In this document: positions 877-1,403 of the stretch, one piece after another | Layout: every line of letters begins with the position of its first letter | How positions within the stretch are numbered: position 1 is the stretch's first letter | Source of the DNA: Escherichia coli | Lineage (GTDB): Bacteria; Pseudomonadota; Gammaproteobacteria; Enterobacterales; Enterobacteriaceae | DNA length: 4,160 nt | NCBI RefSeq assembly: GCF_003334385.1 | Contig: NZ_QOWN01000089.1 | Direction: 5' to 3' (one strand) | Made by a program: the position numbers and the translations under genes | Notes under the pieces: generated by a model | Databases searched by the model: none | Told to the model about the DNA's origin: nothing | The model's input: only the letters and a program-made list of their open reading frames with translations

Positions 877-999
877 GCTGAAAAAGAAAACATCAGATGG
901 TTAGTCGGGTATCAGTTATCTGGTGAAATTTTTAAATACCTCACAATTCAGGAAGGTGATTATTGTTTTTCTGGTGGGGAATTTGTTAAAAATCACTCC

Positions 1000-1113
1000 G
1001 CATGATGAATCCCCCTAAGCGGTGGGGCGACTGGCAAGGCTCCATTACGATGGTCACAATCCGCAGATTTAGTTTGCCAGGCTGAATCTACCGGGAGGCA
1101 CCCGGCATCATGC
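1000..1113 (+). ncRNA. Candidate structured RNA element, copy A (unknown function; possible sRNA or cis-acting leader/antitermination-type RNA)
   Basis: Closing helix P1 1000-1007/1106-1113 (GCATGATG/CATCATGC); hairpin Pa CCCC(1012-1015)/GGGG(1024-1027); helix Pb CTGGCAA(1031-1037)/TTGCCAG(1074-1080) with apical CCAT-TACG-ATGG hairpin (UACG tetraloop); 10-nt conserved linker GCTGAATCTA; hairpin Pc CCGGG-AGGCA-CCCGG (1091-1105). Helices are supported by compensatory changes relative to copy B. The coding frame is not conserved between copies. Confidence 0.45.
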
Positions 1114-1140
1114 ATAATGTGGAAAATTGGAAATGTATTC

Positions 1141-1174
1141 AGGCCTCTACGAATTTTAGTAGAGGCTTTTTTTT
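1141..1174 (+). terminator. Rho-independent terminator downstream of element A
   Basis: 8-bp stem GCCTCTAC(1143-1150)/GTAGAGGC(1159-1166), 8-nt loop, followed by eight consecutive T (1167-1174). Confidence 0.75.
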
Positions 1175-1178
1175 GAGT

Positions 1179-1205
1179 AAAAAAAGCCCGTCTATGGCAG
1201 CGGGC
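1179..1205 (-). terminator. Possible minus-strand intrinsic terminator (convergent partner of 1141..1174)
   Basis: On the minus strand: hairpin GCCCG/CGGGC (5 bp, 10-nt loop) followed by a 7-nt U-run (complement of A-run 1179-1185). Weaker than its unit-B counterpart. Confidence 0.35.
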
Positions 1206-1403
1206 AAGTATGCATGAGAATACATTTTTTATTATTTGCCTGAAAATAGTACCCTGAGGTTATTGTTGTTTTCAACAGGCTGATTTGTGTTCTGATCGGG
1301 GATGTGACAAGGAACATACGTTCTTATGTGAAAATGTTAAATTCTTCACATTTCAGTGAGTTGAGTGTTGATTTCGTTTTATCTTTTTTGTTAAAAAAGT
1401 ATT

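Follow-up and report, generated by a model that had tools for sequence, protein, structure and literature searches.

Extended -10 (TGn) sigma-70 promoters are a textbook class, galP1 being an example. The STnc100 RNA family, whose members are the subject of this analysis, is found under several names: PasD1 and PasD2 in EPEC, and EcOnc05, EcOnc06, EcOnc13 and EcOnc27 in EHEC Sakai, the last of which is called sRNA103 in EDL933. PasD1 and PasD2 of EPEC E2348/69 are STnc100 homologues (bioRxiv 10.64898/2026.05.13.724894) with coordinates 1060260-1060432 and 741157-741328, respectively (PMC8550237 Table S6), and RIL-seq fragments also start at 741157 (PMC8550237). Expression and association with Hfq are known for homologues only (Tree 2014; Pearl Mizrahi 2021; Neuhaus 2017), and at the EHEC Sakai prophage site the layout is that of a convergent sRNA pair (Tree et al. 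2014). Binding of RpoD at STnc100 promoter regions was reported from ChIP-exo in Salmonella LT2, given without coordinates (PMC10794520). We found no description of an STnc100/PasD promoter in the available papers, and the word 'promoter' is absent from the 2026 preprint on the Pas sRNAs.

The window, i.e. the whole stretch of 4,160 nucleotides of Escherichia coli DNA that was analysed, belongs to a lambdoid, Stx-phage-like prophage and represents the 'moron' region of its late operon. Its features are as follows.

52-546: 3' part of a DNA methyltransferase gene
587-836: three tRNA genes, equivalent to the ileZ-argN-argO cluster of Sakai prophages
1000-1176, plus strand: unit 1, predicted STnc100-family sRNA (from Rfam match, fold and terminator; start inferred from PasD 5' ends)
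1180-1275, minus strand: convergent short sRNA gene of the AgvB/AsxR/EcOnc03 type (from promoter scan and local alignments)
1404-1582, plus strand: unit 2, predicted STnc100-family sRNA (from Rfam match and terminator)
1587-1770, minus strand: convergent longer sRNA gene of the EcOnc08/21/42 type (terminator 1614-1593; 5' limit approximate)
1808-3790: nanS-p-type gene of 660 aa, SASA-family carbohydrate esterase by its RefSeq name
3930-4124: small membrane-protein ORF

Both STnc100 copies lie in the non-coding stretch of 970-971 bp between the tRNA cluster and the esterase gene, and behind each of them an sRNA-like gene with a terminator of its own runs convergently on the minus strand. The moron slot, from the tRNA cluster to the nanS-p-type esterase, is the same as in the Sakai prophages, and so is the convergent second sRNA gene; the window differs from the Sakai convergent pairs in carrying two such modules in tandem. 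At least 80% of the 971-bp intergenic stretch is present in only 6 of 5426 complete E. coli genomes, while parts of it are present in 1517 of them. The short convergent gene has a promoter-like TTGAAA-18-TACTAT (1275-1246), an RNA predicted at about 1239-1180, and a terminator, GCCCGCTGCCATAGACGGGC, followed by a U-run; by local alignment it has GUAUCUCAUGC..UUGCCCG and the terminator in common with AgvB, AsxR and EcOnc03. The 3' 53 nt of the longer convergent gene align near-perfectly with the EPEC RIL-seq sRNA 'E2348C_1409.E2348C_1408.IGR'.

Family membership was assigned by a covariance-model score above the Rfam gathering threshold of 47 bits. Both units match STnc100 (RF02076) over the full model (positions 1-206 of 206), unit 1 at 970-1178 with 122.1 bits and unit 2 at 1374-1586 with 147.2 bits, and they are paralogues with 79% mean column identity. 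The RNA parts are arranged in the same way, i.e. a domain closed by the helix P1 with an intrinsic terminator behind it.

1000-1007 paired with 1106-1113: P1 of unit 1
1114-1140: single-stranded linker of unit 1
1141-1168: terminator stem of unit 1, with the U-run at 1169-1176
1404-1411 paired with 1522-1529: P1 of unit 2
1556-1575: terminator stem of unit 2, followed by UUCUUAU

The minimum-energy fold of unit 1 is a multi-stem domain closed by P1. In the single-sequence fold of unit 2 the 3' strand of P1 pairs locally instead, and P1 of this unit was taken from the Rfam consensus alignment and the covariation within the family. This covariation is extensive: 59 distinct versions of the helix occur across the family, including GCATGGTG/CACCATGC, GTGGTG/CACCAC, CGTGATG/CATCACG and GAGCGGTG/CACCGCTC, and the start of P1 is therefore well defined. 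We note that the Rfam model itself covers the motif described next (model positions about 14-25), since its first position lies about 30 nt before the 5' end mapped for PasD.

Upstream of P1 both units carry the 10-mer TTGTTAAAAA, at 983-992 and 1388-1397, as part of an exact 11-mer repeat, TTTGTTAAAAA, at 982-992 and 1387-1397. In the pairwise alignment of the units the 11-mer is an island of 11/11 identical positions with unrelated sequence on either side: upstream CTGGTGGGGAA in unit 1 stands against GTTTTATCTTT in unit 2, and downstream TCACTCC stands against AGTATT. With up to one mismatch allowed, 0.31 chance occurrences of the 10-mer are expected in the window, and two or more matches were seen in 9 of 200 shuffles. 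A stronger argument than the shuffles for the reality of the motif is its equal offset from two homologous RNA elements; from the end of the 10-mer to P1 there are 7 nt in unit 1 (to G1000) and 6 nt in unit 2 (to G1404). An earlier note on this DNA had reported TTGTTA in both units at 983-988 and 1388-1393, and we find it at the same positions. The note had put it about 11-12 nt upstream of each RNA element, a distance that is right for unit 1 (11 nt) and slightly too long for unit 2 (10 nt). The suggestion that the conserved motif is related to a promoter is retained here, with the motif as a part of the -10 rather than the -35 region: it occupies the -10 position, as TG-n-TAAAAA with a TTG 18 bp upstream. 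The proposed elements are the following.

963-968, plus strand: -35-like TTGTTT of unit 1 (3/6 matches, TTG conserved), 18 bp upstream of TAAAAA
984-992, plus strand: extended -10 of unit 1, with TG at 984-985, T at 986 and TAAAAA at 987-992
1368-1373, plus strand: -35-like TTGATT of unit 2 (4/6 matches), 18 bp upstream of TAAAAA
1389-1397, plus strand: extended -10 of unit 2, with TG at 1389-1390, T at 1391 and TAAAAA at 1392-1397

We propose, with a probability of about 0.6, that each TTGTTAAAAA block is the extended -10 of a working sigma-70 promoter that drives the downstream STnc100/PasD-family sRNA. The TG at -15/-14 would contact sigma region 3.0, TAAAAA would serve as the -10 hexamer and the TTG-type element 18 bp upstream (TTGTTT or TTGATT) as the -35. 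Transcription would then start at or beside the first base of P1 (G1000 and G1404), and the RNA, of about 177-179 nt, would consist of the P1-closed domain, the single-stranded linker and the intrinsic terminator. That RNA polymerase uses this promoter in both window copies we infer from what can be observed directly, i.e. the motif, its geometry, its pattern of conservation and the 5' ends of homologues.

As to the geometry, TAAAAA of unit 2 is followed by six nucleotides and then G1404, which is the canonical arrangement, and unit 1 has one base more before G1000. The promoters were scored with a purpose-made, approximate position weight matrix (PWM); the best -10 hexamer alone proved too noisy in AT-rich DNA and was replaced by the full score of -35, spacer and -10. 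By this score TTGTTT-18-TGnTAAAAA ranks first among the promoters predicted in the 85 nt before P1 of unit 1 (6.7), and the proximal promoter of unit 2 is likewise the best of its region (8.4). A standard promoter scan, which demands a T at the last -10 position, gave no promoter on the plus strand here. TAAAAA has 4/6 matches to the -10 consensus, with T-12 and A-11 present and T-7 absent; every E. coli-type copy has A or G at position -7, and the homologues of other genera mostly have T there. The likeness to described extended -10 promoters lies in the TG one base before a TA-initiated hexamer, the weak -35 and, 7-8 nt beyond the hexamer, a purine as the predicted start. The window hexamers depart from the typical case in the missing T at -7 (TAAAAA or TAAAAG) and in a spacer of 18 bp, not 17. 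The weak points of the proximal promoter are thus the T-7, which is usually well conserved, and a -35 of only 3/6 and 4/6 matches.

The position of the start can be compared with the RNA-seq-derived 5' ends of PasD. In the genome both PasD1 and PasD2 start at the G of GCATGGTGAATCC, behind TTGACT-18-TAAAAA, and P1 begins with this same G. The EPEC PP6 copy is broken by ISEc13 and yields no 5' end.

The conservation of the promoter region was investigated in 131 E. coli-type copies from viral contigs. Copies that have the TCACAATTCAG module further upstream, the window included, were called class A, and conservation was read over 22 diverse class A variants. In these, every position of the -35 TTG and of the series T-T-G-T-T-A-A-A-A is either invariant or conserved to at least 90%; G-14 and A-11 never vary, and the T of TG is at least 90% conserved. 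It is conspicuous that the 13 nt between the conserved parts, and the 5-7 nt before P1, are freely replaced, while the spacer is kept at 17-18 bp. At the level of sequence, conserved ends around a spacer of variable sequence and nearly constant length are the signature of a sigma-70 promoter. In the class B copies, PasD among them, the upstream DNA is unrelated, namely the end of a DUF3927 gene. They carry TTAAAA(A) at the same distance from P1 and a better -35, TTGATT or TTGACT, and TA replaces TG. In other words, there is a trade-off between the two elements: copies with a weak -35 (TTGyCT) have TG, and copies with TTGATT or TTGACT have TA instead. Over 42 unique E. coli-type copies, the scoring mostly ranks the proximal promoter first. 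The constant spacing among related copies could partly stem from shared ancestry and not from selection.

Other genera were scanned by means of the conserved 3' hairpin of the RNA, using one genome per species. The hairpin was found in Citrobacter, Enterobacter, Pantoea, Leclercia, Serratia, Rahnella, Cedecea and others, in copies whose upstream sequence is unrelated to that of E. coli. Among 69 unique divergent Enterobacterales copies, the best sigma-70 promoter has a -10 that ends 2-9 nt before the computed P1 in 29, by the full promoter score in a 74-nt window, against an expectation of about 7.5 from position alone (binomial p 3e-11). Near-consensus examples are TTGACA-16-TAAAAA, TTGACA-17-TTAACT, TTGATT-18-TAAAAT and TTGACG-17-TACATT. 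This enrichment of a -10 just before P1 suggests that a start at P1 is the rule in the family, and that the E. coli motif sits in the -10 slot.

A second conserved element is found upstream of the proximal promoter. The TCACA(A/T)TTCAG block of the earlier note is real; it is 11 nt long, and the ranges given for it were one base too long.

932-951, plus strand: distal module of unit 1, with TTAAAT at 932-937 and TCACAATTCAG at 941-951, conserved in class A only
1337-1356, plus strand: distal module of unit 2, with TG-T-TAAAT(T) at about 1335-1343 and TCACATTTCAG at 1346-1356

The module of unit 1 holds a -10-like CACAAT (942-947), from which a start would fall at about 954, and that of unit 2 holds CACATT (1347-1352), with a start at about 1359. 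The lengths of the Sakai copies, predicted from the G of P1 to the end of the terminator U-run, were compared with the northern sizes of Tree et al. (2014), which are approximate and were obtained with probes that cross-hybridise among at least 7 copies.

Sp3, class B: P1 to terminator 173 nt, northern about 187 nt
Sp10 and Sp17, class B: P1 to terminator 158 and 159 nt, northern about 177 nt
Sp4, class A: P1 to terminator 156 nt, northern about 222 nt
Sp5 (EcOnc27), class A: P1 to terminator 171 nt, northern about 235 and 247 nt, a doublet

The northern sizes of class B are about 1.08-1.12 times the predicted length. If class A is over-sized to the same degree, its RNAs exceed the length predicted from P1 by about 43-46 nt, and the second Sp5 species does so by about 54 nt; starts 7 nt after CACAAT or TGTAAT/TTAAAT would add 45 and 57 nt. 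Moreover, the northern probe given for 'EcOnc13' matches a class A copy in the viral contigs at -40 to -6, which suggests that this stretch is transcribed. The probe site is absent from the 9-kb Sp3 stretch around the EcOnc13 peak and from six other Sakai stretches, and since the probe matches the class A leader and not the Sakai stretches examined, the label 'EcOnc13' or the alignment of the table is uncertain. Taken together, the excess in northern size and the probe site indicate that upstream starts probably exist in the class A lineage besides the P1 start, and that the motif is leader RNA in those isoforms. Our reading of the sequence is one of tandem promoters, an ancestral proximal one that would be formed by the motif and a lineage-specific distal module. 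The distal module is an accessory of one E. coli lineage (class A) that probably adds one or two upstream starts, with CACAAT as a -10, and the RNAs started there would be 5'-extended isoforms whose leader contains the motif. The lineage that has the TCACAATTCAG module is thus predicted to make two or three isoforms that differ at the 5' end. Tandem promoters that give 5' isoforms of sRNAs are a general phenomenon, which the class A northern doublet at Sp5 resembles; unlike in the known cases, both starts are deduced here from sizes and sequence only.

The same data can be read to mean that in class A the distal promoter is the working one, and that TTGTTAAAAA lies inside a transcribed leader of 45-57 nt, either as a relic -10 or with a role at the RNA level, for example as an A-rich (ARN-type) Hfq distal-face site or as a single-stranded spacer before P1. 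This is the most serious of the alternatives, and we regard it as possible, if doubtful. The class A RNAs that exceed the P1-to-terminator length by about 45 and 57 nt fit starts at -45 and -57, the 'EcOnc13' probe lies within -40 to -6 of a class A copy, the Rfam seed takes in the motif, and the motif is A-rich. However, the northern sizes are approximate and the probes cross-hybridise, and the distal -10 candidates have poor -35 partners and are outscored by the proximal promoter in nearly every copy. The position of TTAAAA is also kept in copies that have no distal module and whose 5' end maps at P1. As regards a role at the RNA level, it does not predict a conserved TTG 17-18 bp upstream across a variable spacer, and the reported Hfq CRAC peaks lie in the body or the 3' region and not in the leader. 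Nor does the leader have a significant or conserved fold: among the 45-nt leaders of five homologues none differed significantly from its shuffles (z -0.9 to +1.0), and no common fold was seen.

It is improbable that a transcription factor, whether of the phage or of the host, controls the sRNA by binding the motif as its operator, either alone or with the upstream TCACAATTCAG...GTTGA module. TTAAAT-n3-TCACAATTCAG-n3-GTTGAC-n2-TTG is indeed conserved over more positions than a bare -10 needs, and the 11/11 island exceeds the minimal length of a -10. On the other hand, dyad symmetry is absent from TTTGTTAAAAA and weak in the upstream module (TCA-N13-TGA), which is not accompanied by any regulator gene; class B and the copies of other genera do without the upstream module and yet keep the position of the promoter. 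The earlier proposal of a binding site for a phage regulator thus found no support, neither in dyad symmetry nor in an evident cognate regulator.

Two particular site types were considered and rejected. For a CRP site (TGTGA-N6-TCACA) the GTGAA...TCACA arms are 14 nt apart and not the required 6. A sigma-54 site (TGGCAC-N5-TTGC, with GG at -24 and GC at -12) was considered because RpoN binding at STnc100 was reported in Salmonella LT2; unit 1 has TGG-N8-TTGT, with T for the conserved C, and the TGG is at other distances in other variants and missing from unit 2, so that the resemblance is due to chance.

The reading of TTGTTA as the -35 hexamer of the sRNA promoter, which the earlier note had considered, is very unlikely. 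The hexamer does match TTGACA at 4/6 positions, but the only -10 hexamers at 16-18 bp are ATGAAT, TGAATC, GTGAAT or GAATCC, all inside the invariant P1/GAAUCC core, and none of the four has an A at position 2 plus a T at position 6. The observation that there is no usable -10 at that spacing outside the structured element was accordingly made correctly. With a promoter of this kind the transcript would begin about 18 nt inside the RNA element and miss the 5' strand of the covarying P1, and the PasD 5' ends lie upstream of the implied start. That the motif is identical in the two units merely through hitch-hiking, by a tandem duplication of recent date and in the absence of selection on the motif itself, is hardly credible, even though the units are paralogues with 79% mean column identity: both immediate flanks have fully diverged around an intact 11-mer, and many independent prophage lineages whose spacers differ have retained the block.

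The proximal promoter may also bear on variants linked to haemolytic uraemic syndrome (HUS). In an explainable machine-learning study of O157:H7 the strongest HUS-predictive features were located downstream of stx2B and were lost via a T<->C substitution at +90 and the deletion of one T at +103, both of which the authors read as changes within the sRNA (PMC12711010). When Sakai Sp5 is aligned with the alternative Stx2-phage sequence, there are only two differences in the first 123 nt: TTGTTA becomes TCGTTA, and one T is lost between the A-run and P1. By the count of our alignment these are at +89 and +100-102, against the published +90 and +103. The assignment of the HUS variants to the motif rests on these coordinates and on the alignment of Sp5 with its alternative version. 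The change to TCGTTA removes the T of the extended -10 TG, and the loss of the T shortens the stretch from the -10 to P1 by one base. As judged from their positions, the variants may weaken the extended -10 and shift the start. That natural variation in the motif would tune the Stx2-phage sRNA and so contribute to disease severity is a further step, which we consider unlikely. The HUS association is confounded with the phage backbone.

The finding is real but mostly ordinary, i.e. a known RNA family in the known context of a convergent pair, with a probable promoter of a textbook type. It assigns a concrete core promoter and a predicted start to a very common and poorly characterised family of prophage sRNAs. 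It also means that Rfam/Infernal annotations of STnc100 (e.g. those of Bakta), which begin about 30 nt before the mapped PasD 5' end, probably take in promoter DNA. Finally, it offers a testable mechanism for the two HUS-linked variants, which are maybe promoter mutations rather than changes of the sRNA: if the motif is a promoter, a reduced amount of EcOnc27/STnc100 RNA, or RNA with another start, is to be expected from the low-HUS backbone.

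The region from 840 to 1810 of the window carries two convergent-sRNA modules, which stand in tandem. The full two-module arrangement is rare, i.e. it was found in 6 out of 5426 complete E. coli genomes, and parts of it occur in 1517 genomes. The viral contig IMGVR_UViG_2609459863_000010 also matches the window. The first tRNA (587-662) is assigned as Met (CAT) by ARAGORN, and at the identical position the prophages of the EHEC strain Sakai carry an annotated ileZ (tRNA-Ile, CAT anticodon).

Features of the module region (window coordinates)
941-961 and 1346-1366: upstream module of class A, one lineage of the E. 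coli-type STnc100 copies; contains TCACAATTCAG
1180-1275, minus strand: short convergent sRNA gene, similar to anti-sRNAs
1587-~1770, minus strand: longer convergent sRNA gene, EcOnc08/21/42-like
1683-1698, plus strand: terminator-like hairpin, CTGCGCAACTGCGCGG then CCTTTTTCGT, with the esterase gene ~110 nt downstream

The short convergent gene resembles the anti-sRNAs AgvB, AsxR and EcOnc03, with which it has in common GUAUCUCAUGC..UUGCCCG and the terminator. It is accompanied by a promoter-like TTGAAA-18-TACTAT, and the predicted RNA is ~60 nt. The Rfam models of AgvB and AsxR gave no match to this gene at E up to 1, so at best it is a divergent relative. The 3' 53 nt of the longer gene are near-identical to the EPEC RIL-seq sRNA 'E2348C_1409.E2348C_1408.IGR' (EcOnc08/21/42); the seed region (CCUUGCC) and terminator both lie within this segment. 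Rfam returned only a weak OmrA-B-like match here (1586-1674). The terminator-like hairpin lies where the plus strand is antisense to the EcOnc08-like RNA, and it is also kept in Sakai Sp5.

The consensus of the class A upstream module is TAAAT..cTCACAATTCAG.cgGTTGActGTTGtCTG. In the class A copies TTAAAT is kept 3 nt upstream of TCACAATTCAG, and GTTGAC ~3 nt downstream of it. At 25 bp from the proximal -10, GTTGAC lies too far away to serve as its -35 element.

Two variants that predict HUS have been published, +90 T<->C and +103 delT (PMC12711010). In Sakai Sp5, downstream of stx2B, they are at positions 437 and 448-450 of the compared locus, and the equivalent window positions are 984/1389 and 993-999/1398-1403, respectively. 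Within TTGTTA, the first hits the T that belongs to the TG; the second lies within the short stretch from the A-run to P1, the closing helix. In one EPEC STnc100 copy (E2348/69 PP6, locus L251, 440-470) an ISEc13 insertion has cut off the 5' end, and with it the promoter and the 5' strand of P1.

Positions 1-30 of the Rfam STnc100 model are unpaired and correspond to window 970-999 and 1374-1403. The DNA they cover lies ahead of the 5' end mapped for PasD. STnc100 annotations based on Infernal therefore probably run ~30 nt too far in the 5' direction, into the promoter.

The structured core of STnc100, GAAUCCCCC-N3-GCGG-N-GGGGC ... CCGGGAGGCACCCGG, is closed by a covarying P1 and is carried by many genera of Enterobacterales, often in several copies per genome (genome-contig loci L131-L250). 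In these loci the sequence of the loops is near-invariant. Ordinary base-pairing sRNAs do not usually show this, and it hints that the STnc100 5' domain has a conserved role, either in structure or in binding a protein.
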